This document shows, piece by piece, positions 8,214 to 64,000 of a stretch of DNA of 64,000 bases. The notes beneath the pieces were generated by a model that worked only from the letters and a program-made list of their open reading frames with translations, was not told the origin of the DNA and searched no databases. The position numbers and the translations under genes are program-made. Each line of letters opens with the position of its first letter. The stretch's first letter is position 1. This stretch comes from Minisyncoccota bacterium (GTDB lineage Bacteria; Patescibacteriota; Minisyncoccia; Phycocordibacterales; JBAZVT01): the NCBI GenBank assembly GCA_041660745.1, contig JBAZVT010000003.1, positions 1,880 to 65,879 on the forward strand, in the 5' to 3' direction.

Positions 8214-8319
8214 CAGTAACCAGCATACCGTAAATTTTCTGTAAAATCTAATCCTGAGCTAAAATATAACTATTTTACTACTTTCATTTTTGTACTTGAA
8301 TTTGGGTGGTATAATCCAC

Positions 8320-26392: not shown

Positions 26393-26479
26393 GAGAACTC
26401 CTTTTTAGGATTTTCTGCCACTGAAAGCCGTGGCCGCTTAACCGTTCTGAATGTAAGACTACGTATTTAATTTTTTATG

Positions 26480-27529
26480 TCAAGATTTTGTACTCGTCCA
26501 CCACATATGAGACTCTGACGCTGGTAATGTAGACACAATATACCTCAAAGGAGATACAAGACCAAGCGACCAATGAGGACGCCTAGTGTTGTACCAAAGT
26601 AACCAATTAATGAGAGCTTCATTAAAAGCATCAATGTCATGAGCTAAAAGTTTTCTGTTTCTGTTAACAAAAGCTTCCACAACAGTTCGGTTGAATCGTT
26701 CAACTTCAGCGTTCATTTTTGGCGATCTTGGATATGTGTGAAAATGAACGATGTTGTTCTTTTCAAGCAGAACGTCAAAGTGGTCAGCAAACTCACTACC
26801 ATTGTCTGTTTGCACATGCGTAACAGGAAGTGGTGCAACATGTTTAAACTTCATCATGAAGTCAGCAGATGCTTTTGATGAATGAGAAGTATACGCATAT
26901 GCAAAAGCAAATTTTGATTCGCAATCAATACCAGTGAGCAAATATCTTTTAATACCATCGGTGAAGCGGATGACCGAATCTGCTTTAACTAGTCCTCCTT
27001 CGTGACCTTTAGAACGCAGTTTCTTGCGTTTAACTCTGATTTTCTCTCGAAAGGTATCTGATTTTGCATAGTATGAAAGTTTCGTATATTTTGGAAGTTT
27101 TCCTTGTTTCTTGAGATCATTTAACATTCGACCGACAGTAGATGCGGAGAGATCGGCAACCTTGTCTTCTTTCATGAGTACCGCCAGTTTGTCTTTGGAA
27201 AGTCTTGGATCATTCTGGCGTTCCTTGAGAATGAAATCTTCTACAACTTTTGGGATGACACGTTTTCTTCTTTGTTTAGGAGCAGTACTTTTTTTGTTGA
27301 GAAACTCCAGTTTTCCCATACCATCTCGAAGTTCTTTTTGCCAGCGAAAAAGAGTTGGTCTTGAAATGCCAAAGGCTTCTTTAGTGGCAGTTGTTCCATA
27401 CTTCTCCCAAAACGCTAATATCCTGCACCTTTCTTTTGCGGTTTCGCTAATCATATACTTGAAGCGTATCACACGCTCCCAAGTACTAATGAAGCCCTTT
27501 GTTCCTCTAAATTTATTGAAAATGCGCAT
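26480..27529 (-). CDS. IS481-family transposase (HTH + rve integrase core, DDE)
   Basis: N-terminal HTH; TGIDCESKFAFAYAY...HVQTDNGSEFADHF...YPRSPKMNAEVERFNRT integrase-core motifs. Confidence 0.85.
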   Translation of the reverse strand: MRIFNKFRGTKGFISTWERVIRFKYMISETAKERCRILAFWEKYGTTATKEAFGISRPTLFRWQKELRDGMGKLEFLNKKSTAPKQRRKRVIPKVVEDFILKERQNDPRLSKDKLAVLMKEDKVADLSASTVGRMLNDLKKQGKLPKYTKLSYYAKSDTFREKIRVKRKKLRSKGHEGGLVKADSVIRFTDGIKRYLLTGIDCESKFAFAYAYTSHSSKASADFMMKFKHVAPLPVTHVQTDNGSEFADHFDVLLEKNNIVHFHTYPRSPKMNAEVERFNRTVVEAFVNRNRKLLAHDIDAFNEALINWLLWYNTRRPHWSLGLVSPLRYIVSTLPASESHMWWTSTKS

Positions 27530-27575
27530 ATGAAAACTCTAATTAAAGAGTCTCATATGTTTCTGAACTTATGCA
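26480..27575 (-). mobile_element. IS481-family insertion sequence (about 1.1 kb) with 14-bp terminal/subterminal inverted repeats ACATATGAGACTCT
   Basis: Single DDE (rve) transposase ORF. acatatgagactct at 26503-26516 and its reverse complement agagtctcatatgt at 27548-27561. Exact ends and target-site duplication not resolved. Confidence 0.7.
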
Positions 27576-27670
27576 GGTTATGGCAAAAAACGCCTTAGCA
27601 GGAGAGCCCCAAGACTAACTGTTGAAAAAAGCCTCAAAAGTGCTAAGGTGTATACATACAAACTTATACC

Positions 27671-29047
27671 ATGAGAATTCTATTCATCTCAAACGACCTT
27701 ATAGCTGGAAATCTCGCCTATCGCCTCAAACAAGAAGGTCATGATGTTAAGTTGTTCGTTGAAGAACCCCTCAGTAAAGAATGCTTCTCTGGATTAGTAG
27801 AAAAAATCGAAGATTGGAAAAAGGAACTTGATTGGGTTGGAAAAGACGGGTTGATTGTTTTTGATGACGCAGGATACGGTGAAATGCAAGAAAAGCTTCG
27901 TAACGATGGCTATACTGTATTTGGCGGTTGCTATGTTGGCGACAAACTTGAAACAGAAAGAGAGTACGGCCAAGCAATCTTCAAAGAATACGGCCTCAAG
28001 ACAGCTCCCCTCAAAAACTTTTCTTCTGTCCAAGATGCAATTGCATATGTAAAGAAAAATGGTGGGTCCTGGGTTATCAAACAAAACAACCACAACTTCA
28101 AACATCTCAGCTACGTGGGTAAATTTGAGGACGGAAGAGATATTGTTAACGTTCTAGAAAACTACGAACTACGCAACGGAGAGATAGACAAAATTACTCT
28201 GCATAAAAAGATTGAAGGCGTGGAAATAGGAGTGGGTAGATATTTTAATGGAACAGACTGGGTAGGGCCAATAGAATATAATATAGAACATACGAAACTA
28301 TTCCCTGGCTGTATTGGACCGACAACGAGCGAAATGGGAACTCTTGCTTGGTATGACGATGATGAATCAGGCAAACTTTTTAAAGAAAATTTAAATCTTC
28401 TCAAGCCATTCCTGCAACATATAGGCTATCGAGGTGATTTTGAAGTCAATTTTATAGTTAACGAGACGGGTGCATATCCACTGGAAGCAACCGCGCGTCT
28501 CGGCACCCCCATCATTCATTTGCATGATGAGATACACGAGAGTCCATGGGGAGAATTTTTATATGCCATCGCCCGTGGTGAACAATATGATTTAAAATAC
28601 AAGAAAGGATTTGGTATTGTCGTTGTTATTGCCACTCCCCCATTCCCATACTCAGAACGTGCTTACAATAGACTTTCAAACAACAACTCATACCGCTACA
28701 ACATATATTTTGATCACGAGATGAGCGCAGAAGAAATGAGCCATATTCATTTTGAAGAGGTGGCTGTGCGTGCTACTGATCCAAAACAACTCTATGTTGC
28801 AGACAGCCGAGGTAATGTTCTCTATGTTACTGGTATGGGACAAACAATCCAGGAAGCACGGGATATCACCTACGAAAAAATAAAACCGATTGTTATTCCT
28901 AAAATGTTCTACAGAAACGATATCGGAGTCGAATTTGAAAAAAATAGTCTTGGAAAACTTAAGGAATGGGGCTACATAGCCGACGGAGAAAAAAGTGAGG
29001 TAGCAGAAATGAACACAATTAGTGAGAAAACGATCGTAGGAATATAA
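27671..29047 (+). CDS. ATP-grasp enzyme of the phosphoribosylamine-glycine ligase (PurD) family, divergent N-domain
   Basis: Collinear with PurD: ...QAIFKEYGLKTAPLKNFSSVQDAIAYVKKNGGSWVIKQNN (A-domain), YRGDFEVNFIVNETGAYPLEATARLGTP (compare FNCRFGDPE), GFGIVVVIATPPFP. Lacks the canonical GNGGREHAL N-terminal motif. Confidence 0.65.
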   Translation: MRILFISNDLIAGNLAYRLKQEGHDVKLFVEEPLSKECFSGLVEKIEDWKKELDWVGKDGLIVFDDAGYGEMQEKLRNDGYTVFGGCYVGDKLETEREYGQAIFKEYGLKTAPLKNFSSVQDAIAYVKKNGGSWVIKQNNHNFKHLSYVGKFEDGRDIVNVLENYELRNGEIDKITLHKKIEGVEIGVGRYFNGTDWVGPIEYNIEHTKLFPGCIGPTTSEMGTLAWYDDDESGKLFKENLNLLKPFLQHIGYRGDFEVNFIVNETGAYPLEATARLGTPIIHLHDEIHESPWGEFLYAIARGEQYDLKYKKGFGIVVVIATPPFPYSERAYNRLSNNNSYRYNIYFDHEMSAEEMSHIHFEEVAVRATDPKQLYVADSRGNVLYVTGMGQTIQEARDITYEKIKPIVIPKMFYRNDIGVEFEKNSLGKLKEWGYIADGEKSEVAEMNTISEKTIVGI

Positions 29048-30064: not shown

Positions 30065-30177
30065 AGGAAGAGACATTATAACGTATCTAGACAACCAGTC
30101 ACTGTGGATTACTCACAAAAACTACACTAGCCCACAGAATATTTTTTTACGCATGAAAAAATAATTTTTATCCACAC

Positions 30178-37250: not shown

Positions 37251-37361
37251 TTCTGGCGGCTAGCTACTTTCCCCTCCATAAGAGTATCATCACCGCAAGA
37301 GAGCTTAACTTCTGAGTTCGGAATGAGATCAGGTGTATCCCCTCCGCCATACCACCAGAAC
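37251..37361 (-). rRNA. rrf: 5S ribosomal RNA
   Basis: Minus-strand sequence gttctggtggtatggcggagggg...ccgaactcagaagttaagctct...gccgccagaac matches the 5S consensus (CCGAACUCAGAAGUGAAAC loop C). Confidence 0.85.
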
Positions 37362-37519
37362 TTAAAATTCGATATATCAAAAAACAAACCTAATAATTAC
37401 ACGGAAATACACACATCTCGCCCATCGCGAGTAGTATATAATTCCATGTAACAGGGTAAAAAACAAAAAATCTTTCTGTGACGTATCACAGAAGTGGATC
37501 TCAAATTTCCTAATAGAAA

Positions 37520-40895
<3,376 letters not shown>

Positions 40896-41221
40896 TTCCC
40901 ATTAGGAAATTTAAGAACCACAATATATTTTTTGTTTTTGTTTTACCCTGTTACATAGAATCATCTACATAACAAGTTACTTCTACATTTTACCTGCGTA
41001 TCTCCAGCTTCGAAAAGACCATATAAAATGGTTGCTGGGATACAATGAACAAATCTTATCCCGATGTGAATCGAGAATCAGCAAATGTTATTTTTCAAGG
41101 TATCGATCGTTCGGAAATAAAAAACCGCTTTTTGAGGCGGGGGTGGACTACACAAGAATACTTGGTCGTCTAACTCCGCTTTAAAATGTGGTTAGTGATC
41201 TGCATATCTGTAATGGGTATT

Positions 41222-43807: not shown

Positions 43808-44299
43808 TTATGAGGTTTTAGTCTTTGCGATAGCATCGAGAGCGATAACAAGTCCCTGTATTGGAGAATTGATAACGTTGACGAACATACCATAAAGAGT
43901 TTTCTGAGAAGGAATGAGGGCGATAGCCATCATCTCTTCTTTGTTCATAAACTTACCTTCGAAGACACCTCCGAGGATTTGAATTTTCTTGTCGAGCTTC
44001 TTCTGGAAGTCATAGACTTCGCGAGCTGCATCGGTAAGATCTTTACTGAATGCCATTCCAAGTTCGCCTGGGAGTTCTGGCAACGTACCAGTGACACCAC
44101 CATCAACAAGAGCTTTCTTAGTGATAGTTTTCTTAGCAATCTTGTACCCTATTCCCAAGCCCTTGAGAGTCTTGCGAATAATAGTAGCGTCAGCAACTGT
44201 CAATCCATGGAAGTTGAAGAGAACGATAGAACCAGAGGTTTTTACCGCATCACTTACTTCTGCATAAATTTCCTTTTTCTTTTCTTTTGAGATAGCCAT
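43808..44299 (-). CDS. rplJ: 50S ribosomal protein L10
   Basis: MAISKEKKKEIYAEVSDAVK...; directly upstream of rplL. Confidence 0.95.
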   Translation of the reverse strand: MAISKEKKKEIYAEVSDAVKTSGSIVLFNFHGLTVADATIIRKTLKGLGIGYKIAKKTITKKALVDGGVTGTLPELPGELGMAFSKDLTDAAREVYDFQKKLDKKIQILGGVFEGKFMNKEEMMAIALIPSQKTLYGMFVNVINSPIQGLVIALDAIAKTKTS

Positions 44300-45783: not shown

Positions 45784-48700
45784 TTATTCTTCTTTTACCT
45801 CGTGTCCACCTTCAACAAAAATAATTTCCGGCACAACAACTTCTTCCGTTTGTAATTCTAATACCTCTAAAGGTTTATTTAGGGCATCATTTTTTTCCTC
45901 AACAACACCCTCCCCGCTTTCTAAATTATCGGGTTCTTTGTATTCATCGGCAATAGGTGTGGGAGTCTCTCCTTCTGTTTTTTCTTCAGAACTCACAGGG
46001 ACCTCCTCTTCCGTTTTTTCTAAAGTAGTGCTTGCTATTGATGCAGATTCCGTTTCTTCTAACATGGCCATTTGCATAGCACCGAAGACACCATCTTCGT
46101 GTATTTCAATAGCCTCAGAAAGAAGTGCAACAGTCACTGGATCTTCTGCATATGCGAGCTTAGGATTTCCTGACGGCACAGCATCAAACCATGGTGAAAA
46201 ATCGACAAGACCAAAGACTGAATCCCCCACTGCAAGATTATTTTTTATCTCTTCAAATGGCCCCGTCGCGTCACCCCACCAATTTTCTTGTGCGAGGATA
46301 GTATTTTCACCCGTAGAAAGAATGCCGTTTGAACGATTTCCAAATATTTGACTGCGAGCAACCGAAGCACTGTCCCCAAAGAAAAGAATCCCATATTCAT
46401 TACGGGCAAGTGTACTTGAAGCAATCACAACTTTCCCATCATCAAATATCCCAACACCCTCAGCTTCATTATCTGAAATATTTGAATTTGTAATCGTCAT
46501 TAAACCCGATGCCAAACTATTTCCAAATATTTCTACACCTGCACCACAATAAGAAATATCTGCATCAGAAATTTCTGCGGAAGAATTGTCGTATACATAC
46601 ACCCCTACCCCGTCCACACGGGAAATATTTGGACGTGTGACTTGGGCGGTGCTATTGGCATATATAGACAAAGCATCTCCAGAAATATTTGAAAGAGCGA
46701 GGTCAGAAAAAATCCCATGAGAATCCATGTACAGATTAATTCCGCCCGTAGTATTTTCAGCGCGCACGTCAGAAAGAGTGACCTCGGCCCCGTCGTATGC
46801 ATTCACAATGGAATCACCGCCAGAAATACTAGTATCCTGTATCGCAAGCGTACACTGTCTACAGGTGACGGTATCAGTATATGGAGAGCCTGTGATTGTG
46901 CTGTTTGAAATAACCACTGAAGAACTTGCCTGTGCACTTATTCCATCCTCAAGTTTTTTTATTTTTGTATATCCAAATACATTTCCTACAGACCCTGAAT
47001 AAAACTCCGTTGCACCAGTGCCATATTCAGAGAGTTCCCCATTATCAGAAGACCTCAAATCTCCCCCGACAGAATCATCTGTAAATTCAGTAAAAATAAC
47101 TGGATTGTCTGATGTGCCAAGCGACTTGATAGTACCCTCCACAGAAAGTCCTGTTGCATAACTCCCCCAACTTCCATTATCGTAAAATTTTACAATCGTC
47201 CCAGGCAAGAGTGTCAGCGTTGTTCCTGAAGCGACGTGTATATTACCTTCAAACACATACGGACTTTCTTCTGGAGTGAGTATCATATCTTCTGTAAAAG
47301 TTTCCCCTCTATACCACACAGTCGAAACACTGTTACGTGACTTTGGCGTGCCTAGGATATATCCATCTTTTGAATCTTTTCCATTTGCAATTTCTCCGGT
47401 GTTCGCATTCCAGTTTTCATAATCAAATCCCCCAACATACGGCGAGACCCGTTCCATGGTTCTTTTGTCACCAGTATCATTACTCCCCCCTGGCCAACTT
47501 CCTTCAACCAACACTGTCGTGTCTATGGTTGTAGATCCGTAATTTAGATTCAATATAACACCACTATTGTTGAGAGCTCCGACATATACAAGGTCTGCTT
47601 GGATATCTGAAACAGAAGTATTGTCTGTTCTCTCCAAGAGAAAGTAGCCATGGGCAGGAATTGTTTTTGATAATGAAATACGCGGTGTTCCAGTAGCTTT
47701 ACTATTAACAAGAGCCCAGCCCGAAAGATCTATATCATACGGAGTCGTGTTATACAGCTCCAACCATTCATCATTAGCATCAGCCTCTGTGCCCATCCAA
47801 GCAACTTCATTAATAACTACAGGCATCGTCGCAACAGACACACTCACTGCAACAGGCTCAGAATCACCACCTGCATTGTGTGCTGAGACAGTAAATTGTA
47901 AGTCACTTCTATCATCAACAACCACGCTGAGCCCAGAGTATGTGGTTGTAGAAACAAGACCGTTTAAATTAAATGTAAAATATTCAGCAATACCAAGAGA
48001 TTCATCTGCTTGCCAGGTCAACGTCAGGGTTGTTGTTGCAACTAGACAGCCAGTCGAGACGAGAGACTGCGAACACTCAGCGACTGAAAAATTTGTAACT
48101 CCAGGAAGCTCAGGAAGAAACGGTGACGGGATTACAGGAACCTCCGGTTCTCCGGGAGATGCTGTGTGGCGGGATCTATTTGACCCAGAATAAATAACCT
48201 GTGTTGGGTTATAAAAAGGCGCAAACACCCCAGTTGGGAAATTTGCGTCAGCTACTTTTGATTGATCTATAAAGCTCGGTGTAGAATTAAGTTCCAATCC
48301 CTCACCCTCATCAAGGACTGTGGTGATACTATTAGTAGTCTTTGACTGTAAAAAAGTAATTGATTTTATTGCAGACTGTGCAAAAGTCTGAGCACTTTCA
48401 CCTGTCTTTTTCGCAACAACCGTTGCTGTTGTCTTTCCGGTATATCCAAGAACGGAAGCGATATTCCCACCCGTTTGCACTGTCCACAACGTTCCATAAT
48501 TAGCACCCCTCCAGGCGCTTGTCGCAACTTTTGCCACAGGTGCACCTATGTAATCTGAGAAAAGATACGCAAAGCCAATTGGTATAAGTTGAAAAATATT
48601 TTTCTTCGCAAGACCCTCAGCAAGCTCTTTATCCTTCAGCGCCTCTTCTACTTGCTCCTGCTTTTGCTCTGCAAGATATTCCTCGCGCGCCGCTTTCGCC

Positions 48701-49575
48701 TCTTTCAAAAACAGCTCTATCACTCCCGCCGACGCCAGCACAGCTTGTTTTGAAAGACGATCAAAGTAGGAAGAGAGGACGGAGTCAGAAAAATAATATG
48801 TCCTTACACCATCCAAACTTATTTTTGTATTTAAAATTTCATATTTTTGGTTATCCAAACCGTCAACACCATAAATAACTGACCCGTCAGAATTTTCAAT
48901 TTCTGGATTTTCAAAATAATTTTCTGAATTATCTATTGTATCTGCACTAAAAAAATTCTTATTTGAGTAGTCTGCAAGATATTCAAAATATTCTGAGATG
49001 TCTGAAAAAGTTATTGGTTCATATCTCCGGTCAACATATTCCTTTGCAGTGCCCGTAAGCGCACTACCATCTTTCCTGCGAGCCCAATTCTCATAAGGAC
49101 TATCTCCTGTATATAACCCGGAAGCACCGTCTCCTTTATGTGGATCATTTCTTGTATGTTCAGGAACAGTCATATCCTGAATAAGATGCAGTACATGACC
49201 TAGCGACAAGAACGCTTTATTATCATTCCCCTCAGCATAATATTGGATCGCTTTTGGCCAAGAAAATTCATTAGCAACAAGCACCCCATCCGTACCCCAA
49301 TCTTTTGCTGAGCGATAGTTATTAAAACCGATTTCTCCTCTCGGATCATAAAAATGATTGAGGGCTCGAATCCCAGCATCCTCATCGACTGATCCCTGAA
49401 TAATTAAACGTTTTTCTGAATCATGTATTTTATCCGTTATGGACTGTAAATTATAAAACTCTATCCCCTGCTCGGTTATGCCAGGGTGAGTTGTTCCAGA
49501 ATGGTATGCACTCACAAAAAATATAGCCCCAAGAAATAAAGGCCCAAAAAACATTCTAAAAAATATCTTTTTCAT
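45784..49575 (-). CDS. 1263-aa secreted multidomain protein: zinc-dependent phospholipase C-like domain + Ig/Fn3-like + lamin-tail domain (LTD) + right-handed beta-helix repeats
   Basis: Signal peptide. N-terminus ALNHFYDPRGEIG...FLSLGHVLHLIQDMTVPEH resembles the Zn-PLC/alpha-toxin H-F-W/Y-D-P and H-x(2)-GD-x(2)-P-x-H motifs. VVINEVAWMGTEADANDEWLELYNTTPYDIDLSGWALV is a lamin-tail-domain signature. Repetitive NISGD/SNISDN pectate-lyase-like beta-helix repeats. Acidic C-terminal tail. Confidence 0.7.
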   Translation of the reverse strand: MKKIFFRMFFGPLFLGAIFFVSAYHSGTTHPGITEQGIEFYNLQSITDKIHDSEKRLIIQGSVDEDAGIRALNHFYDPRGEIGFNNYRSAKDWGTDGVLVANEFSWPKAIQYYAEGNDNKAFLSLGHVLHLIQDMTVPEHTRNDPHKGDGASGLYTGDSPYENWARRKDGSALTGTAKEYVDRRYEPITFSDISEYFEYLADYSNKNFFSADTIDNSENYFENPEIENSDGSVIYGVDGLDNQKYEILNTKISLDGVRTYYFSDSVLSSYFDRLSKQAVLASAGVIELFLKEAKAAREEYLAEQKQEQVEEALKDKELAEGLAKKNIFQLIPIGFAYLFSDYIGAPVAKVATSAWRGANYGTLWTVQTGGNIASVLGYTGKTTATVVAKKTGESAQTFAQSAIKSITFLQSKTTNSITTVLDEGEGLELNSTPSFIDQSKVADANFPTGVFAPFYNPTQVIYSGSNRSRHTASPGEPEVPVIPSPFLPELPGVTNFSVAECSQSLVSTGCLVATTTLTLTWQADESLGIAEYFTFNLNGLVSTTTYSGLSVVVDDRSDLQFTVSAHNAGGDSEPVAVSVSVATMPVVINEVAWMGTEADANDEWLELYNTTPYDIDLSGWALVNSKATGTPRISLSKTIPAHGYFLLERTDNTSVSDIQADLVYVGALNNSGVILNLNYGSTTIDTTVLVEGSWPGGSNDTGDKRTMERVSPYVGGFDYENWNANTGEIANGKDSKDGYILGTPKSRNSVSTVWYRGETFTEDMILTPEESPYVFEGNIHVASGTTLTLLPGTIVKFYDNGSWGSYATGLSVEGTIKSLGTSDNPVIFTEFTDDSVGGDLRSSDNGELSEYGTGATEFYSGSVGNVFGYTKIKKLEDGISAQASSSVVISNSTITGSPYTDTVTCRQCTLAIQDTSISGGDSIVNAYDGAEVTLSDVRAENTTGGINLYMDSHGIFSDLALSNISGDALSIYANSTAQVTRPNISRVDGVGVYVYDNSSAEISDADISYCGAGVEIFGNSLASGLMTITNSNISDNEAEGVGIFDDGKVVIASSTLARNEYGILFFGDSASVARSQIFGNRSNGILSTGENTILAQENWWGDATGPFEEIKNNLAVGDSVFGLVDFSPWFDAVPSGNPKLAYAEDPVTVALLSEAIEIHEDGVFGAMQMAMLEETESASIASTTLEKTEEEVPVSSEEKTEGETPTPIADEYKEPDNLESGEGVVEEKNDALNKPLEVLELQTEEVVVPEIIFVEGGHEVKEE

Positions 49576-50185: not shown

Positions 50186-50342
50186 TTTACGTAATATTTA
50201 ATTTAGAAATAATAATTACCAAAAACTTTTTTATTGACACACCCCACAAACCATTTTCTATATTGTATCACCCGCCCCACCAAAAATCTTCATTCCCTTT
50301 TAATAAAAACTGTGGATAACTTTTTCTTCCTTAGGACTCTTC

Positions 50343-50382
50343 CATAGGACCGCCCTATGTTTTCACATAGGGCGGTCCTATG
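50343..50382. repeat. REP-like hairpin D1 flanking the RAYT gene (CATAGGACCGCCCTATG-ttttca-CATAGGGCGGTCCTATG)
   Basis: 17-bp perfect stem; ends 4 nt from the RAYT stop codon; identical stem to D2 at 51105-51144. Confidence 0.85.
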
Positions 50383-50386
50383 GAAA

Positions 50387-51082
50387 TTATTTTGGCTCAC
50401 CTCTTAAATCTCCAAGATCCCTGAACTCAAGCCAGTCAGAAACAATACTTTCAAAAGATGGCGCTGGAGACGAAAAGTAATCCGGAAACTCATCAGCTTT
50501 TAGTATTTTTGATTCAGGTCTTAAATTAAAGTTAATTTCCACATATTCCTTGTAACTTGAATATTTATAATTATCTAAGAAATTCTCAGCTTTTTGCATG
50601 TCCACAACCCCCCTCTCTTTCCACGCAGGATCAATAATCTTTACCGGATTTAAATGTATATATGAAACTAAATACTTTAAATATTCGTCGGTATTTGCAT
50701 GAACTGCTTTAAATCGGCTCTCAAAAAGACTTCCGGTCCGTGTATTTTTTCTATTGAAATACATTGAGTATGACGTAAGCAATTTACCCAAAAATTTACT
50801 TATACCACCTTCTTCTGTTTCTTTTAAAAGTATGTGGAAATGATTTGGCATCAAACAGTATGCGCCGACAGAAACAATACTATCTTTCTTTTGAAAATTA
50901 AAAATATCCTTAAATTCCTTCTCAATCTCCCTAAAAGTTATATTTTGAGATGTATTATAAACAAATAAACCTTTAATAAAACGTTGATAATCTCTTTCGT
51001 CCTGAAAAATAAAGCGTTTATCAACGCCTCGAGCATAAATGTGATAGTACTCTCCTACACTAAATTCGATTTTTCTTTGCAT
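50387..51082 (-). CDS. REP-associated tyrosine transposase (RAYT) / IS200-like Y1 HUH transposase (COG1943)
   Basis: HUH motif LMPNHFHILL; C-terminal SRFKAVHANTDEYLKYLVSYIHLNPVK matches the RAYT catalytic-Tyr region (compare RFWEH...DYIYINPVK). Confidence 0.85.
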   Translation of the reverse strand: MQRKIEFSVGEYYHIYARGVDKRFIFQDERDYQRFIKGLFVYNTSQNITFREIEKEFKDIFNFQKKDSIVSVGAYCLMPNHFHILLKETEEGGISKFLGKLLTSYSMYFNRKNTRTGSLFESRFKAVHANTDEYLKYLVSYIHLNPVKIIDPAWKERGVVDMQKAENFLDNYKYSSYKEYVEINFNLRPESKILKADEFPDYFSSPAPSFESIVSDWLEFRDLGDLRGEPK

Positions 51083-51104
51083 TTTTATAAGAATAGAGGT
51101 TTTA

Positions 51105-51144
51105 CATAGGACCGCCCTATGTTTTTACATAGGGCGGTCCTATG
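51105..51144. repeat. REP-like hairpin D2 immediately upstream of the RAYT start
   Basis: cataggaccgccctatg-ttttta-catagggcggtcctatg; same stem as D1. Confidence 0.85.
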
Positions 51145-51412
51145 TTCTATCTATTGCTATTGTCTAAAGCATTAATGACAGAAGATGGGGTTGGGTTGGA
51201 AGCACGAAGATCGTTGCCGGAAACATAGCTGTTGTAAGAGAGGATGCCGGTGACGATGAGGCTTGCAAGAAGGATCGCGATAAAACTGAGGAAAAAATTG
51301 AAGAATGTTTTATCGAAGCAGTCTGACATTGTAATCGTATTATAACAAAGGCCTTCAGATAAGGGAAAAATGTTGCTCATAATCTGTGGATAACTCAAGA
51401 ATATATAAAATG

Positions 51413-51482
51413 CATACGACCGCCCTATGTATGTCACGGGAAAATTCCCAACTCCCTACCCTAGGGATGTCCTATGTATACG
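51413..51482. repeat. degenerate third copy (D3) of the RAYT-associated REP with a 30-nt insertion in the loop
   Basis: catacgaccgccctatgta ... cctagggatgtcctatgtatacg. Confidence 0.6.
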
Positions 51483-51573: not shown

Positions 51574-53454
51574 TTATTTAAGTCTTGATACTTCTGTATC
51601 AATGTCATTCAAGCCAGCTACGTATGATGTTGCGGCTGAAGTAACTGCATCACTGAAGTTAACTTCTGCAAGCTTAACACCTACATAGTTTGTTGATGAT
51701 GTTGCACCGTTCTCAACAGTAACCTTCAAAGTGAATGTTTCTGTCTGTCCCTCTTGAACGAGGTATGAGCCACCGGTCAAATCAGCATCTGAACTGAGAT
51801 CACTTGAAACTGTTGAACCTGAAATTGGGTTAACAATTGCAAACTGAACGCCAGTTGAAGTTGCTGTTGTTGTTGCACCCTTGAGGATGTAAGCATCTTC
51901 ACCAAATGATGTAACACTGAACTTGATTGTGTATTCGTTTCCAAATACTGTTTCTGAGTCGTTAGAAGCAACAACTGAAGTGCTGACTTCCTTGACTGAG
52001 ATACCATTTACGTAGAATGTCATAGTTTCACCGTTTGCAGAACCTGAAACTGAAACTACATCACCCTGAACGTTTTCAACGTCGAAGTCGTTTGAAACTC
52101 CAACAGAGACTTCTGCAGCATCACCGTTTGCGAATGTTGCATCGTCTGTGTCATTGAGGTCAACTTTAACAGTCAAAGTAACTGTATCATCTTCGTCAAT
52201 TGAAAGATCGAGATCTTCAAACAATACTTCACCTGAAGCATTAGCTGAAGCGATAGTTACAGAATCAAGAAGATCTGAACCGTCGTAAAGGTAAACTTTC
52301 TTGAACATACCTGTGATTGTACTTGTTGCACCTGAAGTTGTTGCAATAACAACTGGGATTTCATTAACAACCATATCTCCATCGTTTGCCTTGAGCTTGA
52401 AGACAAGAGCTGTAACATCTGTTGTGTCATCAGACTCGTCAACTTCAATACTCTGAGCGTCTGGATTTGAAGTTGCTTCACTTACAACGAGATCCTCACC
52501 TGAGAGGCCAGCAACATCAAAGGTTTCAACTGTACCCTCGAGGTCTGTCTGAGATCCAGCAACCTTACTGTAGGTATCACTGATTCCAGCACCATCAACT
52601 GCGCGGATTCCACTTACTGGAATTGCAACAGTCCATGTTGTACCTTCGTCATCTCCGTCAACGTTCTCAACTGCAGTAACCTCAACAAAGAGTTCTGCAA
52701 CTTCATCTGCTTTTACAACACCACTAAGGCCTGTAAAGCGGAATGAGTATACATCACTGTCTTCGTCTGCTTCTGAAGCATCCATAGTGTCAATGGTCTT
52801 ACCATCAAGGACGAGAGCTACTGAGTCAATGTATCGTGTCAAACGATCTGATGCACCTGTAGCAACTGTTGTTGCTTTGAAGTCAACATCAATACGTGAA
52901 ATAACGATATCTGAATCTTTTGCTTCAACCTCAAGACCGAGAACCTGAACATCTTCGTCACCTTCTTCAATTGATGAATCAACTGAAAGTGTGTCATTGA
53001 TGTCAAGAGAACCTTCTTCGCCAGATGTTGTTACAACTGGTGTTGTTGGTGTTCCTGGTGTAACTACAACTGGAGCTGCAACATTCAATGCTGCGCGGGT
53101 CAAAGGACCAACGTAACCTGTTGCACTGATTCCCTTTGTAGCTTGGTATGCCTGTACAGCTGCTTTGGTGATAGCACCGAAGTAACCTGTAGCTGGTGTA
53201 ACACCGAGCTTTGCCTGGAGAGCTGAAACATCAGCACCTCGTGAGCCTACAGTAAGATCTGTTGAGTAAACATATCCTGCTGGTGTTGATACTGTTGAAC
53301 CACTAAGCTGGGCGATCTGGGCCTGGAGCTGAGCGATCATTGCGTTCAAAGCTGCAATGTCTGTTGTCTGTGCCTTTGCTACTGGAGCGAAGACAAGACC
53401 AAGGACGATAGCAACTGCCGCAACTACTGCGAACAATTTTGTTGTTTTTGTCAT
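51574..53454 (-). CDS. acidic Thr/Val/Asp-rich surface protein with N-terminal peptidoglycan-binding (PG_binding_1) domain
   Basis: Signal peptide; LTVGSRGADVSALQAKLGV...TGYFGAITKAAVQAYQATKGISATGYVGPLTRAAL is a classic PG_binding_1 repeat; long acidic repetitive Ig-like region. Start taken at MTKTTKLF (53454). Confidence 0.65.
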   Translation of the reverse strand: MTKTTKLFAVVAAVAIVLGLVFAPVAKAQTTDIAALNAMIAQLQAQIAQLSGSTVSTPAGYVYSTDLTVGSRGADVSALQAKLGVTPATGYFGAITKAAVQAYQATKGISATGYVGPLTRAALNVAAPVVVTPGTPTTPVVTTSGEEGSLDINDTLSVDSSIEEGDEDVQVLGLEVEAKDSDIVISRIDVDFKATTVATGASDRLTRYIDSVALVLDGKTIDTMDASEADEDSDVYSFRFTGLSGVVKADEVAELFVEVTAVENVDGDDEGTTWTVAIPVSGIRAVDGAGISDTYSKVAGSQTDLEGTVETFDVAGLSGEDLVVSEATSNPDAQSIEVDESDDTTDVTALVFKLKANDGDMVVNEIPVVIATTSGATSTITGMFKKVYLYDGSDLLDSVTIASANASGEVLFEDLDLSIDEDDTVTLTVKVDLNDTDDATFANGDAAEVSVGVSNDFDVENVQGDVVSVSGSANGETMTFYVNGISVKEVSTSVVASNDSETVFGNEYTIKFSVTSFGEDAYILKGATTTATSTGVQFAIVNPISGSTVSSDLSSDADLTGGSYLVQEGQTETFTLKVTVENGATSSTNYVGVKLAEVNFSDAVTSAATSYVAGLNDIDTEVSRLK

Positions 53455-53814
53455 ATAGTAATGAATTCTAATAAATGAGTATTTGTGCAAGACACGTTAC
53501 TTAATAAAAAGGTGTGTTCACACAACTACTGTAATAAATTTCACGATCGTACTATATATAGTACGTTAGTGAACCTAATAATGCGTCATCACTCTTGCGA
53601 GCGACAACAAACTACACATTCACTAATCTCGGGGGCTTTATTACTCAACCGCCCCAGGTGGACAAAAGAATTTATTCATTCGTCCACGCGAGGCAGTTAA
53701 ATCGACACAAAGCTTTTACGAGTTTAGGTGATGAAAGTAGGTCTGAGTTCTATCGGAAGCAACCATGTCTGAAGAAGTGTACGGGAATGTCTTTTAGACT
53801 GGGAATAAGAAATC

Positions 53815-53891
53815 CTGGATTGCTTCGGATGATTACATCCTCGCAAAGACAGAAACTGGATCCCCGCATCCGCGAGGATGACAGAGAAAAG
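53815..53891 (+). repeat. repeat family B copy 2 (two tandem direct units)
   Basis: ctggattgcttcggatgattacatcctcgcaaagacagaaa + ctggatccccgcatccgcgaggatgacagagaaaag. Confidence 0.7.
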
Positions 53892-54250
53892 ATGTCTTAA
53901 TTCAAAGTCTTACTGCGCTATTTAATTGTCAAAGGTCTATCGTATTATCCACCCTCTCTGTAACATCTTACGAACACCGCGTGTATTCGTTACATGCCTT
54001 CATTAACTTTCTATCTGTAATGTGGACGTACCATGAAGATACATCTACTGGATAATTATATTCCTTATACAGGTACACTGCAAAGGATACTGTGGATAAC
54101 TTCTAAAAAATCCCGCACGGGACACATCTAGAAGTGGGTATAAGTATAGTCTTTTTATGAAGAAAGTCAATGAAGAAAAGGATTAAAAAGTAATTATGTG
54201 GCTAAAAGCATACGTATTTAGTATGAGTATAAGGAGGTAAAAGAATGCTA

Positions 54251-54300
54251 AAAACAGAGGCTTAGCCTTTTTGAAGATCCAAGGCTAAGCCTCTGTTTTT
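54251..54300. repeat. repeat family C copy 1: terminator-like palindrome AAAACAGAGGCTTAGCCTT-loop-AAGGCTAAGCCTCTGTTTT
   Basis: 19-bp stem flanked by A-run and T-run; same stem core as 54557-54608 and 63516-63564. Confidence 0.75.
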
Positions 54301-54359
54301 AAAAGAAAAAAGGAGAAGGTTAAATCATAGACTGTTCTCTACTACACAAAAAGCCACAT

Positions 54360-54436
54360 GTCATTCCCACGAAGGCGGGAATCTGGATTTGCATTGAACC
54401 TGGATTCCCGCCTTCGCGGGAATGACAGAGAGGAGG
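54360..54436. repeat. repeat family B copy 3 (inverted pair of units forming a long hairpin)
   Basis: gtcattcccacgaaggcgggaatctggatt-tgcattgaa-cctggattcccgccttcgcgggaatgacagag. Confidence 0.7.
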
Positions 54437-54488
54437 ACAAAAAAGATATTAGAAGGCTCGCAAAGACAGGAGAGGAAAAAAGCAAAGA

Positions 54489-54529
54489 CAAAAGTCCGAC
54501 CTTTTTGCAGTAAAAAGGTCGGACTTTTG
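54489..54529. other. 18-bp perfect hairpin containing the AAAAAGGTCGGAC motif
   Basis: caaaagtccgaccttttt-gcagt-aaaaaggtcggacttttg; related AAAAAGGTCGG words at 33147 and 14012. Confidence 0.6.
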
Positions 54530-54556
54530 GAAAGACGAGATATGAAAGAAAATATG

Positions 54557-54608
54557 AAAATACAGAGGCTAAGCCTTTCTGGGGATTTAAGGCTTAGCCT
54601 CTGTATTT
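54557..54608. repeat. repeat family C copy 2; functions as terminator of the 54619-55506 gene
   Basis: aaaatacagaggctaagcctt-tctggggattt-aaggcttagcctctgtatttatttt; sits 10 nt downstream of the stop on the minus strand. Confidence 0.75.
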
Positions 54609-54618
54609 ATTTTGTCCT

Positions 54619-55506
54619 TTAAGCGAACGCGAGAGAGTATGTACTCCAACGGCGTTCCCCTTCTTTCTTAAGGACACCTTCGGCAACAAGGGCGAGAAGC
54701 TCGCGTTGGAGAGTTTTCTCACTACACCCCTTCACCACATCAGCAATATCTTTCACACTAACTTTACTCTTTCTGGTTACAAGGGCGAGAATTGCAGTAA
54801 CACGTTTTGTCTTCTTTTCCTCCACAGGAGACACATGAGCTGGTCGTGCCGGAGCTATATTTTGAGTAAATGTCTTTTTGACAGAAGTGGACGATGAAAC
54901 AAACGGAGCCTCTGCAGGTCGAGATTGTTCACGAGATATAAAGGACACTTTTTGTGAGGGCATAAAGTTGTCTTTTATAACTTTTCTTTCTTCCTCTCGG
55001 ACGGCTGACACATCTGCGTGCGTGGAATTTATTTCTGGTTTTTTTACATGGAAAAATGATTCCCCAAATGCCATCGGATTCACTCCAATAGTTTCAGAGG
55101 CCTCTTTCTTGTCCACAAGATTTATAAGTGCTGTAAACTCCCGTAAAAGTATCGTGTGGTTCATCGGACTAATGAGTCCAGCGGTATGTGCTATTTCTAC
55201 GAGCGTTGCAAGATGGGTAATTCCCTTCTTCACACTTACAAGCGAAAACCCTGAACCTGTTCCTGAGATGGACATAGCCGTGAGAATGTCTGAGAGAATT
55301 GTTGACGATGCGGAGCGCATATTCCACTTCATCGGCTCATTGTCCGAGAAGAAATTTGTAATGAGGTAGAGTGCAGTAGCGAGACGTTCTGTCTTTTTGT
55401 ATATAAAAGCAGATCCAGCATCACCATTAAAGACACTTAAAGAAACCTCTTTCTTTTCAGGGGTATTTTGTACGGCTGTATTCTGGATGTCTTTTTGATT
55501 ATCCAT
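54619..55506 (-). CDS. hypothetical protein with C-terminal winged-helix DNA-binding domain, embedded in a repeat-rich non-coding island
   Basis: C-terminus VSVKDIADVVKGCSEKTLQRELLALVAEGVLKKEGERRWSTYSL is a typical wHTH; N-terminal 200 aa without recognisable similarity. Confidence 0.5.
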   Translation of the reverse strand: MDNQKDIQNTAVQNTPEKKEVSLSVFNGDAGSAFIYKKTERLATALYLITNFFSDNEPMKWNMRSASSTILSDILTAMSISGTGSGFSLVSVKKGITHLATLVEIAHTAGLISPMNHTILLREFTALINLVDKKEASETIGVNPMAFGESFFHVKKPEINSTHADVSAVREEERKVIKDNFMPSQKVSFISREQSRPAEAPFVSSSTSVKKTFTQNIAPARPAHVSPVEEKKTKRVTAILALVTRKSKVSVKDIADVVKGCSEKTLQRELLALVAEGVLKKEGERRWSTYSLAFA

Positions 55507-55939: not shown

Positions 55940-58297
55940 ATGGCACGAGAAAAATTAGAAAAAGAAACACGAACAGAGCGCGAGGAACGTGGCGAGAAAT
56001 TTGAACGTTCCCAAAGAAAACAGAAAAAACAACGTGGTGTTTTTCGAGACCTCCAAGACGAGACCCGTCAGCATGTCTGGGGGATCGTATTTTTTGTTAT
56101 TGGAATTTTTCTCATTTTGGCAGCATTCGGCGGCAGCGATAGTAACCTCGCAGGACGAGCTGGTGGATTCTTCTATGGGACATTTCACACCCTACTCGGT
56201 ATCGGTTATTACATGATTCCCCTTCTCATGTTCATGCTCGGCATATCTTTTATGAAAGCTATGGAGAGAAGTTTTGCACTTACAAAAACTATTGGTGCGG
56301 TAATCTTCTTCCTCTCTTCTCTCGGAACAATTGGCACTATCGGTATCATTGTTGATGATCGCATCGGTGGCATCCTCGGATATTATGTTGCCCTACCCCT
56401 TGTCGGACTTTTTGATATTTATGCGACGCTCATCTTCCTCCTCGCACTCGTCGGTATTTCTTGTCTCATCATATTTGATACACACATCAACTTCAGCACC
56501 TTTGCTTTCGTAAAAAGAATGTTTGCACGGAAAGAAAAAGTACTCTCTGCAGAATTGGATACCGAGGAGGAGAAAAAGGCAGATGCAGCTATTGCTGTTG
56601 AGATGAAAAAAGTAGAAGAAAAGCCAGAACAAGCAGCCCAGAAAAAAGCACCTCTCGGAAAGATAGATGATAAAGATTTTTCTGTCTCTCAGAGGCACTT
56701 TGCCCTTGGGGTAAAGTTCATCCCTCCCCCGCTCTCCCTGCTGGAACGAGATAAAGGGAAACCAGAAGTTGGTGATATCAAAGCACAAGCAAACATCATC
56801 AAGCGTTGTTTACAGAATTTCGGCATCACTGTGGAAATGGACGAAATCTCTATCGGACCAACTGTCACACGATACGCACTCAAACCCGCAGAAGGTGTGA
56901 AACTTTCAAAGATAGTCTCACTCCAAAACGACCTATCTCTAGCTCTCGCTGCCCACCCCATCCGTATTGAAGCACCTATCCCCGGCAAGTCGCTCGTAGG
57001 TGTTGAAATACCAAACGTTACCAAAACCATGGTTGGTCTTGGATCCATGTTTGCTATGCCAGAATTCTTGGAATCACCAAAACCAATGCTTGTATCTATC
57101 GGTCGCGGTATTTCTGGAGCATCGCATTTCTCCGACTTGGCAAAAATGCCCCACCTCCTTGTTGCTGGTGCTACCGGTTCCGGTAAGTCTGTGACCATCC
57201 ACACACTCATCACTTCGCTTCTCTACCGCAACTCACCAGAAGACATGAAATTCATTATGATTGACCCGAAGCGTGTGGAACTTACTCTCTACAACAAAAT
57301 CCCCCACCTCCTTACCCCCGTTATTACTGATGCGAAGAAAACTATTCTATCTCTGAAGTGGGCAGCTAAAGAAATGGACCGACGCTATGATGTGTTGCAG
57401 ATTGAAAAGTGTAGAGATATAAACTCGTACCACAAGAACATCCTCGGTCCCGCCATGAAGAAATATGAGGAAAAGCTAGCAAAAGGAACCGTAAGCGAGG
57501 AGGACCAGAAAAAGATGCCTGAGACGATGCCTTACATCGTGATTATTATAGACGAGCTCGCAGACCTCATGCAGGCATACCCACGAGAACTGGAATCAGC
57601 GATCGTCCGCCTCGCACAAATGAGTCGTGCTGTTGGTATTCATCTCATTATTTCCACACAACGTCCATCTGTAAACGTTATCACCGGTCTTATCAAAGCA
57701 AACATTCCGACTCGTATTGCTCTTCAGGTGGCTAGTCAGATAGATTCACGCACAATTTTAGATATGGGAGGTGCCGAAGAATTGCTCGGCGCCGGAGATA
57801 TGTTGTATCTCTCCCCTGATATTTCCAAACCAATCCGCGTACAGTGTCCGTTCATATCTGAAAGCGAGGTTAAAAAGGTAGTGGATCATGTTGCGGAACA
57901 ATACGCAGGATCAATTCCAAGCGAAATTAACTTTAGTGAAGAACAACAAAAAAATGCCCTCTTTGACGCACAGCTCGACGAAGTAGCTGATATGGAAGAC
58001 GAGGACGAACTCTATGAAGAGGCTCGAGAGATTGTTATTGCATCACATAAAGCATCTACTTCATTTCTTCAGCGAAAGCTGGGGGTTGGATATGCTCGCG
58101 CGGCAAAACTTATTGATTCACTGGAAGCACGCGGTGTCGTGGGTCCTGGAAACGGATCTAAGGCTCGTGATGTCCTGGAAAGTGCCCCTCAAGGCATTGG
58201 GGAGGACTTTGCAGCAGCAAGTGCAGAAGCAGCACGAGAAGATGCTAGATCTGGTGGTAATACAGATACAGAAGAAGAAGAGGCTAAAACGTTTTGA
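55940..58297 (+). CDS. ftsK: DNA translocase FtsK/SpoIIIE
   Basis: N-terminal 4-TM domain, motor domain with Walker A GATGSGKS and DELADL Walker B, C-terminal gamma wHTH (STSFLQRKLGVGYARAAKLIDSLEARGVVGP). Confidence 0.95.
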   Translation: MAREKLEKETRTEREERGEKFERSQRKQKKQRGVFRDLQDETRQHVWGIVFFVIGIFLILAAFGGSDSNLAGRAGGFFYGTFHTLLGIGYYMIPLLMFMLGISFMKAMERSFALTKTIGAVIFFLSSLGTIGTIGIIVDDRIGGILGYYVALPLVGLFDIYATLIFLLALVGISCLIIFDTHINFSTFAFVKRMFARKEKVLSAELDTEEEKKADAAIAVEMKKVEEKPEQAAQKKAPLGKIDDKDFSVSQRHFALGVKFIPPPLSLLERDKGKPEVGDIKAQANIIKRCLQNFGITVEMDEISIGPTVTRYALKPAEGVKLSKIVSLQNDLSLALAAHPIRIEAPIPGKSLVGVEIPNVTKTMVGLGSMFAMPEFLESPKPMLVSIGRGISGASHFSDLAKMPHLLVAGATGSGKSVTIHTLITSLLYRNSPEDMKFIMIDPKRVELTLYNKIPHLLTPVITDAKKTILSLKWAAKEMDRRYDVLQIEKCRDINSYHKNILGPAMKKYEEKLAKGTVSEEDQKKMPETMPYIVIIIDELADLMQAYPRELESAIVRLAQMSRAVGIHLIISTQRPSVNVITGLIKANIPTRIALQVASQIDSRTILDMGGAEELLGAGDMLYLSPDISKPIRVQCPFISESEVKKVVDHVAEQYAGSIPSEINFSEEQQKNALFDAQLDEVADMEDEDELYEEAREIVIASHKASTSFLQRKLGVGYARAAKLIDSLEARGVVGPGNGSKARDVLESAPQGIGEDFAAASAEAAREDARSGGNTDTEEEEAKTF

Positions 58298-63498: not shown

Positions 63499-63515
63499 AA
63501 TTTTAAATTTGGAAA

Positions 63516-63564
63516 CTACAGAGGCTAAGCCTTGGCGTCGAACGCCAAGGCTTAGCCTCTGTAG
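63516..63564. repeat. repeat family C copy 3; terminator hairpin downstream of metG
   Basis: ctacagaggctaagccttggcg-tcgaa-cgccaaggcttagcctctgtag. Confidence 0.75.
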
Positions 63565-63572
63565 TAAAATTC

Positions 63573-64000
63573 CTAATCTTTTCTCATAAAGAGAGGCTTT
63601 GCTGGCATTTCTCGATTCAAAATTGCATGTTGAATTTTTCCTGCTGTTTCAGGAAGGATTGGTACAAGCAAGAGTGAGATAAGATAAAGATTTTCTAGCA
63701 CAAACTCAACGTCTTTAATTGCTGCAGCGGGATCACTCTTATGTTTCTTAAAAGGCTCGTTTTTCTGTATATAACCATCCGTATCTTTTATGAGGCTCCA
63801 CACAGCATCGCAAGCTATGGTCGTATTATATGCATCTAACGCATTTTTGTACGTTCGCACCACATCTATCGTAGCCTTAGTCACAGAGTCCTCTATGGCC
63901 TCTTTGCGGGCTTCTGCAAGCATCGCGCCATACGTAACAGCCATCTTTAATGATCGATTAACAAGATTTCCTAGACCATTTGCAAGGTTTGCATTGTATA
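63573..64000 (-). CDS. metG: methionyl-tRNA synthetase, C-terminal (anticodon-binding) portion; gene continues beyond the window end
   Basis: DAVWSLIKDTDGYIQKNEPFK...LYLISLLLVPILPETAGKI resembles the MetRS anticodon-binding helix bundle (compare AIWELVRAANKYID...LAILLSPFMPETAEKI). Confidence 0.7.
   Translation of the reverse strand, partial: YNANLANGLGNLVNRSLKMAVTYGAMLAEARKEAIEDSVTKATIDVVRTYKNALDAYNTTIACDAVWSLIKDTDGYIQKNEPFKKHKSDPAAAIKDVEFVLENLYLISLLLVPILPETAGKIQHAILNREMPAKPLFMRKD

Follow-up and report, generated by a model that had tools for sequence, protein, structure and literature searches.

The question raised by this 64,000-nucleotide stretch of a Minisyncoccota genome (the window, by which we mean the whole stretch analyzed) is whether a gene for a Y1 tyrosine transposase-like protein, together with the palindromes on either side of it, makes up a canonical REP (repetitive extragenic palindromic) system, in which a RAYT (REP-associated tyrosine transposase) spreads REPINs, or REP doublets, through the genome. 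Domesticated Y1 transposases of the RAYT kind and their palindromes are a rare case of a mobile-element enzyme being kept over the long term. We find that the locus is a recognizable, non-canonical, low-copy version of the known arrangement. It is probably a unit similar to a REPtron or TIRtron (TIR, terminal inverted repeat), that is, a chromosomally fixed, vertically inherited, single-copy endonuclease resembling subclass 2.1 of the Y1 enzymes, accompanied by private hairpins that co-evolve with it. The encoded protein derives from an 80.8-kb contig of a Candidatus Paceibacterota metagenome-assembled genome (MAG). The elements in question are as follows.

50387..51082, minus strand: predicted single-strand DNA endonuclease gene of the HUH (histidine, hydrophobic residue, histidine)/Y1 type, RAYT-like, 231 aa, NCBI protein MFA6094483.1 (the Y1 gene)
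50340..50385, no strand assigned: 3' hairpin hp1, a perfect palindrome with a 21-bp stem and a 4-nt loop, an inverted doublet of CATAGG-ACCGC-CCTATG
51104..51145, no strand assigned: 5' hairpin hp2, a perfect palindrome with a 19-bp stem and a 4-nt loop, arms identical to those of hp1
51413..51476, no strand assigned: hp3, a decayed third doublet, CATACGACCGCCCTATG, 30-nt spacer, CCTAGGGATGTCCTATG

The Y1 protein carries the motifs MPNHFHILL (H81 and H83) and VSYIHLNPVK (Y141), as an earlier sequence-only reading of this DNA had stated, and H81, H83, Y141, and N145 are invariant in 51 homologues. Its Y-x-x-x-N-P signature is YIHLNP at residues 141-146, and the Pfam Y1_Tnp model matches at 43.3 bits (E 4.7e-11, cut-off 23). 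An AlphaFold model built on an alignment reached a predicted local distance difference test score (pLDDT) of 91.3, and its best Foldseek match in the PDB was 4ER8 (E 1.4e-5, TMt 0.66), the structure of E. coli TnpA-REP bound to a REP hairpin; the IS608 and ISDra2 TnpA structures were the next matches. These results support its identification as a Y1 HUH enzyme of the RAYT-type class. The C-terminal 89 residues, when modelled alone, yielded a pLDDT of 71 and no PDB fold match, and no Pfam match to a Bac_DnaA_C-like or helix-turn-helix (HTH) C-terminal domain was found in the 51 members at E values up to 1. The window contains one copy of the Y1 gene, and the protein forms a cluster with one member from one contig, without a near-identical paralogue.

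The geometry of the hairpins also agrees with the sequence-only reading. The core CATAGGACCGCCCTATG-N6-CATAGGGCGGTCCTATG lies at 50343-50382, 4 nt past the Y1 stop codon, and again at 51105-51144, 22 nt upstream of the Y1 ATG, with hp2 lying 1 nt after the stop codon of a small upstream ORF (open reading frame). The degenerate third copy, 270 bp further on, is a doublet with arms at 51413-51429 (1 mismatch) and 51460-51476 (3 mismatches). As single-stranded DNA, hp1 folds with an energy of -25.6 kcal/mol (z -12.6) and hp2 with -22.9 kcal/mol (z -13.3), and hp3 folds no better than shuffled sequences (z -1.4 to -1.8). The 17-nt arm is itself a mini-palindrome, CATAGG-N5-CCTATG, a feature that the sequence-only reading had not mentioned, and therefore each hairpin is an inverted doublet of a 17-19-nt unit, a REPIN-like construction of the kind that the sequence-only reading had proposed to look for. 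Both possible orientations of the doublet exist (one at L007, the other in the window; L numbers denote the fetched loci), so the basic element is the 17-19-nt unit and not the 40-mer. One published criterion for a REP is a 5' GT[AG]G tetranucleotide at the foot of the stem (PMC6006769); neither GTAG nor GTGG is found in or beside the unit, the foot of which reads (A/C)CATAGG.

Species-specific hairpins bracket the Y1 gene in 8 of 9 species, and the flanking palindromes at seven loci are given below.

L029: TATCCAAGGGG-N-CCCCTTGGATA
L030: ACCACCAAGGCCCGGCCTATGT / ACATAGGCCGGGCCTTGGTGGT
L031: TACGGAGGG-CTA-CCCTCCGTA
L034: doublets of ACACAGG-GTAGT-CCTGTGT
L037: TTTACTAAGGC-AAG-GCCTTAGTAAA
L041: doublets of ACATAGG-GGTAC-CCTATGT
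L043: CTTGCGAAGG-CCCGC-CCTTCGCAAG

As a control for this bracketing, the longest exact word common to the 150 nt upstream and the 150 nt downstream of each ORF was determined. For seven of nine Y1 genes this word is 19-40 nt long, and L030 joined the seven after an over-long annotated start was corrected, compared with a median of 8, a 95th percentile of 10, and a maximum of 17 for 117 control ORFs from the same loci. Two distant homologues with 28-30% identity (L019 and L046) are likewise bracketed by hairpins of their own. Stems of the form CA[CT]AGG...CCT[AG]TG are common to five species, with the 5-nt loops ACCGC, GGTAC, GTAGT, CCGGG, and TCTGG; an AGG-loop-CCT apex is found in most species' hairpins, and the L029 repeats contain GGGG[TA]CCCC. 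In three species an in-frame copy of the genome's own unit lies inside the Y1 gene, at the same variable loop of the protein (about residues 52-62), where it encodes IIQGVPLDR, FREGRAFAE, or PIGRAYE. At this syntenic gene, then, the left and right hairpins are identical in any one genome and vary from genome to genome. This pattern argues for concerted evolution, whether the hairpins are actively copied or converted or are strongly co-selected with the enzyme. No correlation between hairpin type and protein similarity was seen, all pairs of proteins being 50-66% identical, and compensatory changes in the unit amount to one clear case (T:A to C:G in L034), too few for a formal covariation analysis.

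The syntenic context of the gene in the window comprises these neighbours.

55940-58297, opposite strand to the Y1 gene: FtsK
54619..55506, minus strand: gene for a 295-aa protein, between FtsK and the PG_binding giant
51574-53490, minus strand: PG_binding giant, adjoining the Y1 gene
Between the Y1 gene and the LTD giant, minus strand: gene for a 202-aa protein (the small protein)
45784-49575, minus strand: LTD/beta-helix giant
43808-44299, minus strand: L10
43342-43737, minus strand: L7/L12, followed by a mechanosensitive-channel protein

The order FtsK, PG-binding giant, Y1, small protein, LTD giant, L10, L12 recurs in 8 of 9 other Paceibacteria species (those named are P0050, P0006, P0110, P0016, P0094, P0109, and P0026; the exception is P0119, locus L034), at about 55% protein identity. 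The Y1 gene is therefore an old, vertically inherited resident and not a moving insertion sequence, and the alternative that the sequence-only reading had named beforehand, that the hairpins are IS200-like ends, is rejected on the same grounds. The nearest homologues of the Y1 protein are 57% identical to it, and thousands exist, nearly all in Patescibacteria; a scan of 1.84 billion representatives retrieved 350 clusters (at 50% identity) at E values up to 1e-30 and 6,159 at up to 1e-10. In viral contigs the 17-mer had no matches and the Y1 family had one distant relative, and we accordingly rejected a phage or viral origin. Separately, L031 encodes a second Y1_Tnp paralogue (8058-8732), 25% identical, two genes upstream of the orthologue and with its own 3' hairpin, GGAAGCCCCCGTACGGGGGCTTCC.

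With regard to copy number, allowing up to 3 mismatches, the 17-mer is found in the 64 kb only at hp1, hp2, and hp3, the mean in shuffled sequence being 0.09, and the approximately 63 kb outside the locus contain no copy. Similarly, no distant copies of the species' own units were found in about 145 kb of homologue loci. In a scan of 185,579 GTDB representative genomes, a set that does not include the source genome, the exact 17-mer occurs in 11 stretches, seven of which are in five Patescibacteria MAGs, and no single representative genome has more than three exact units. One of these MAGs, JBARNW01 (Minisyncoccia), carries the 17-mer at three separate intergenic sites on three contigs, and four further Patescibacteria MAGs carry it as orphan singlets or doublets; these copies are intergenic, often a few nt past a stop codon, and away from both Y1 homologues and the neighbour genes. 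In the metagenome contig L027, the unit lies directly 3' of a Y1 homologue with 50% identity. Near the Y1 gene the units gather within 1-2 kb, the window having three, L034 four identical doublets in a span of 2.3 kb, L029 five copies, and L043 four. The flanking hairpin family is real, somewhat dispersed in the lineage, and low-copy. Contig ends that coincide with hairpins were given no weight, since assemblies break at perfect palindromes whatever their copy number.

The sequence-only reading had taken the flanking family for the bona fide REP of this genome and had set it apart from the other families of palindromes. The first part is not supported, as all three copies are at the locus, none occur elsewhere in the 64 kb, and three units at most occur per representative genome. 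The second part fails because of a sister family, CAGAGGCTWAGCCT, which has the same ACAnAGG-N5-CCT build and, with three sites, is more dispersed in the window than the flanking family.

54249..54301, no strand assigned: nested palindrome of the sister family, ACAGAGGCTTAGCCTT-N11-AAGGCTAAGCCTCTGT
54558..54608, no strand assigned: nested palindrome of the sister family, ending 10 nt past the stop codon of the 295-aa gene (54619..55506, minus strand)
63515..63565, no strand assigned: nested palindrome of the sister family, ending 7 nt past the stop codon of the gene at 63573..63944 (minus strand)

At least two of the three sister copies abut a stop codon, and the family is flanked by A/T tracts in the manner of bidirectional terminators. 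Across the whole window ACAnAGG-N5-CCT has six matches, in the CAGAGGCTWAGCCT and flanking families only, compared with a simulated mean of 0.19. A doublet of hybrid make-up (CATAGG-TCCGA-CCTCTGT / ACAGAGG-TCGGA-CCTATG) stands at a distance of 4.2 kb from the Y1 gene of L030. Given the common build and the hybrid doublet, the flanking family is a branch of a wider hairpin superfamily. No second Y1 gene is present in the window, and most of the remaining palindromes there are single, A/T-flanked, terminator-like hairpins.

The name RAYT applies to the protein in part. The Y1 HUH assignment, the Y-x-x-x-N-P signature, and the 4ER8 fold stand, but against the NCBIfam equivalog NF047646 (REP_Tyr_transpos) the protein scored 43.9 bits, below the cut-off of 80, and the match is weak in all 51 homologues (best E 7e-14). 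Class 2 enzymes are distinguished by Y-x-x-x-N-P from IS200, which has Y-x-x-x-Q, and the criteria for subclass 2.1 are NH[YF]H, F/W-[EQ], Y[IV]HLNP, a length of about 238 aa, and a C-terminal tail with a conserved SS (PMC6006769). With NHFH, LFESRF, YIHLNP, a length of 231 aa, and YSSY at 174-177 in the C-terminal tail, the protein's motifs fit TnpAY1 subclass 2.1 (Bertels Group 1, "TIRYT") most closely, an assignment made by inspection against Table 1 of PMC6006769 and not with the authors' hidden Markov models (HMMs) or Markov clustering (MCL). They are unlike those of the REP-linked subclasses 2.2, 2.4, 2.5, 2.7, and 2.8 (Bertels Groups 2-3). Subclass 2.1 (Bertels Group 1; PMC5581495) largely coincides with the TIRYT group described by Di Nocera et al. 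in 2013 (PMC3733652). A Bac_DnaA_C-like or HTH C-terminus is a trait of subgroup 2.1.2. Highly abundant flanking 16-mers are confined to Groups 2 and 3, at 57 and 140 occurrences, compared with 12 in Group 1 (PMC5581495), and Quentin et al. 2018 did not find REP-like structures for subclass 2.1 (PMC6006769).

Similar to TIRtrons, for which self-complementary, low-copy terminal inverted repeats have been described (PMC3733652), the locus encodes a single-copy Y1 protein of about 230 aa with NH[YF]H, Y[IV]HLNP, and the C-tail SS, and the gene is flanked by inverted repeats. In TIRtrons these may be self-complementary or "double palindromic" and are missing or moderately frequent elsewhere in the genome; here the flanks are palindromic and have no copy away from the locus in the window. 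The inverted palindromic flanks of the window lack the GGGGWSAS motif that some terminal inverted repeats carry, and the protein has no detected HTH or Bac_DnaA_C-like C-terminus. The locus differs further from TIRtrons and from subclass 2.1 as surveyed in that bracketing hairpins are near-universal, whereas the survey reported no REP-like structures (PMC6006769), in its strict cross-species synteny and in-frame intragenic hairpin copies, and in its lineage, Patescibacteria, which per our literature search those surveys do not cover. The E. coli REPtron (TnpA-REP, subclass 2.2) provides the best structural match; there, too, a single-copy domesticated gene has inverted pairs of REPs on either side, and hairpins lie downstream of genes. 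Unlike TnpA-REP, to which its sequence is about 12% identical, the window protein has an extra C-terminal region of about 85 residues packed on the core, and unlike E. coli REPs and BIMEs (bacterial interspersed mosaic elements), the window hairpins are perfectly palindromic, have neither a bulge nor a GTAG foot, and number a handful, not hundreds. Cognate hairpin copies inside the enzyme gene with the frame kept are also a feature of subclass 2.4 in Cyanobacteria and Bacteroidetes (PMC6006769), which has YIxNNP where the window protein has YIHLNP. The HUH/Y1 fold and the hairpins near both gene ends are shared with IS200/IS605 elements (IS608 and ISDra2 TnpA), and by analogy recognition of single-stranded DNA hairpins may be shared as well; the differences are that the locus is not mobile as a unit and has another Y motif, identical ends, and no tnpB.

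In the mechanism that we propose, the palindromes would fold when the DNA is single-stranded, during replication or transcription, and the enzyme would bind the folded hairpin, with the AGG-loop-CCT apex as the likely determinant. The HUH-bound metal and Tyr141 would cut beside the hairpin, the strands would be rejoined, and over time hairpins would be copied or converted within and near the locus. Such copying or conversion would explain the left/right identity alongside the differences between species, the extra copies within 1-2 kb, and the in-frame intragenic copies. Folded single-stranded REP is cleaved and rejoined in vitro by E. coli TnpA-REP (PMC8266576).

Several points weigh against reading the locus as such a fixed enzyme with co-evolving hairpins. 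The binding, the cleavage, the copying of hairpins, and any effect on transcription are inferred. Selection for protein binding alone could keep both hairpins alike without any copying. Comparisons of strains revealed no hairpin gain or loss that would prove recent mobility, the sole strain difference, an N-gap of the scaffold at the L040 hairpin, being an assembly artefact. The left/right hairpin match in L039 is weak, and the copy count for the source organism covers the 64-kb window only. Lastly, a profile of the 51 homologues retrieved nothing significant from PDB sequences, the matches around the HUH motif having E values of 0.3-0.6, and phmmer with the Y1 protein itself found no relative there, so that it is fold and motifs that tie the protein to TnpA-REP.

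The hairpins also stand in a transcriptional context that bears on other explanations. On the gene strand each hairpin lies directly past a stop codon, and two of the three are followed about 20 nt on by the box AGTTATCCACAG and then by an extended -10 element.

50311..50319, minus strand: AGTTATCCACAG box; read along the gene strand, it comes 21 nt beyond hp1, with the next gene's TGATACAAT -10 element another 39 nt downstream
51385..51393, minus strand: second AGTTATCCACAG box, which on the gene strand follows hp3 at a distance of about 20 nt and precedes TGTTATAAT and the small ORF
54091-54099 (minus strand) and 30168-30176 (plus strand): further AGTTATCCACAG boxes
51147..51329, minus strand: orphan 60-aa ORF with one predicted membrane helix, between hp3 and hp2

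The box is an exact match to the DnaA-box consensus TTATCCACA and is also found 3' of the 3' hairpin in L030, L037, L039, and L043. Exact boxes number 25 in 209 kb of syntenic loci, 21 of them on the gene strand, compared with about 1.6 expected. They recur on the coding strand at 28-42 nt ahead of TGnTAnAAT -10 boxes, in many cases immediately past a hairpin. AGTTATCCACAG is probably a lineage-specific, promoter-proximal regulator site, and no tie between the box and the C-terminus of the Y1 protein could be shown. Placed directly past stop codons and ahead of the next promoter, the hairpins probably double as insulators or as elements that end transcripts. They pass a scan for terminator-like structures on the plus strand, and on the gene strand neither hp1 nor hp2 is followed by a T-run. 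In L043, a module of about 100 nt (hairpin, TTATCCACAGG box, -10 element, and ribosome-binding site) stands as near-exact duplicates at 10668-10768 and 11673-11773 ahead of two consecutive genes, like a portable terminator-promoter unit. L034 (3466-5737) has four identical 40-nt doublets between a HicA-containing pair of genes, a second pair of genes of about 81 aa, and the Y1 gene, with about 55 nt of near-identical promoter-like sequence after each of the first two doublets; there, too, a hairpin and promoter module of about 100 nt is duplicated ahead of consecutive genes. The 60-aa ORF of the window, among the fetched loci, matches only L001, which is a contig copy of the same locus, and its GC content at third codon positions, 0.53, departs from that usual in the region; the ORF could represent an accessory cassette or not be a real gene.

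The layout that the sequence-only reading had called the canonical REPIN/RAYT arrangement would imply that the flanking doublets are members of a large genome-wide REPIN population spread by the RAYT, none of the other members happening to fall within the window. A gene bracketed by its own palindromes is indeed the REPtron layout, the unit and doublet build is REPIN-like, and the same direction is indicated by the exact 17-mers at the JBARNW01 intergenic sites and in four other MAGs far from Y1 homologues, by the occurrence of both doublet arrangements, by the dispersal of the CAGAGGCTWAGCCT family in the window, and by the hybrid doublet of L030. The word canonical does not survive: with zero copies in 63 kb beyond the locus, zero distant copies in about 145 kb of homologue loci, at most three exact units per GTDB representative genome as opposed to 57-140 for Groups 2 and 3 (PMC5581495), a protein below the RAYT equivalog cut-off with subclass 2.1 motifs, and no GT[AG]G foot, we consider such a population unlikely. 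An active IS200-like insertion sequence with the two subterminal hairpins as its ends would account for the Y1_Tnp domain, for hairpins at both ends, and for their confinement to the locus in the window, an outcome that the sequence-only reading had named as a sign of IS ends, but it is scarcely credible for a gene that retains its chromosomal neighbourhood in 8 of 9 species, where the proteins are about 55% identical, is single-copy without a near-identical paralogue, has Y-x-x-x-N-P and not Y-x-x-x-Q, is flanked by identical perfect palindromes and not by distinct ends, lacks tnpB, and is essentially absent from viral contigs.

The hairpins could also be ordinary transcript-end or regulatory elements (terminators, RNA stabilizers, or sites for another protein) that have nothing to do with the enzyme. 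Such a role would fit their position beside stop codons with a conserved box and a promoter behind them, the outcome of the plus-strand terminator-like scan, and the flanks of the CAGAGGCTWAGCCT family, which resemble those of bidirectional terminators; we nevertheless hold it to be quite improbable, because the gene strand has no T-run after either hairpin, left/right identity is specific to the Y1 gene among 118 ORFs tested, and bracketing, each time by other sequences, is seen again in 8 of 9 species and in two distant homologues, with copies inside coding sequence. To a gene-cassette platform, in which hairpin (and promoter) modules would delimit slots for small accessory genes moved by HUH-driven single-strand cut-and-paste in an integron-like manner, we assign a slim chance. 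The content between hairpins varies while the outer flanks are syntenic: there is the 60-aa orphan ORF in the window, a HicA-type and another two-gene cassette between the four doublets of L034, in L039 a 238-aa gene with a 79-nt palindromic element on each side, and a 214-aa gene among five hairpins in L029, in addition to the duplicated modules of about 100 nt in L043 and L034. Yet none of the cassettes turned up in a second context, neither excised nor empty sites were observed, an extra gene is lacking in four species, and local duplication and decay give the same pattern. The wider form of this idea, that across Paceibacteria a fixed HUH/Y1 enzyme and its private hairpins mark insertion slots for toxin-antitoxin pairs and orphan membrane ORFs, is equally doubtful; if true, it would be a single-strand-DNA, HUH-driven counterpart of the integron platform in minimal-genome organisms.

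Returning to the fixed, vertically inherited enzyme with private hairpins, the locus comes from Patescibacteria, which have very small genomes and form a lineage outside the RAYT surveys; our literature search found no paper linking RAYTs or REPs with Patescibacteria. Retention of the Y1 gene in such reduced genomes argues for a host function. As the gene is fixed in place and the flanking hairpins change yet stay matched, the syntenic loci offer a natural series for the study of enzyme-hairpin co-evolution. By itself, the locus leaves the existing picture of how REP/RAYT systems work unchanged.

We would like to note several further features of the window. Between the PG_binding giant and the 295-aa gene, 1.1 kb (53491-54618) without a convincing gene is dense in palindromes, including a nested ATTCCCGCGAAGGCGGGAAT-type pair at 54359-54427 and a hairpin at 54489-54529. 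At the gathering threshold, Rfam detected the 23S and 5S rRNA genes only and nothing in 53491-54618, a region that could hold unannotated RNA or small genes. The 23S rRNA gene (37507-40906, minus strand) is about 3.4 kb long compared with a 2.9-kb model, which implies one or more insertions totalling about 475 nt, possibly an intron; the 5S rRNA gene follows at 37251-37359, and the window has no 16S rRNA gene. Around 26000-28000 the cumulative GC skew peaks and gene orientation changes from mostly plus to mostly minus, which suggests a replication-related or large-scale strand switch.

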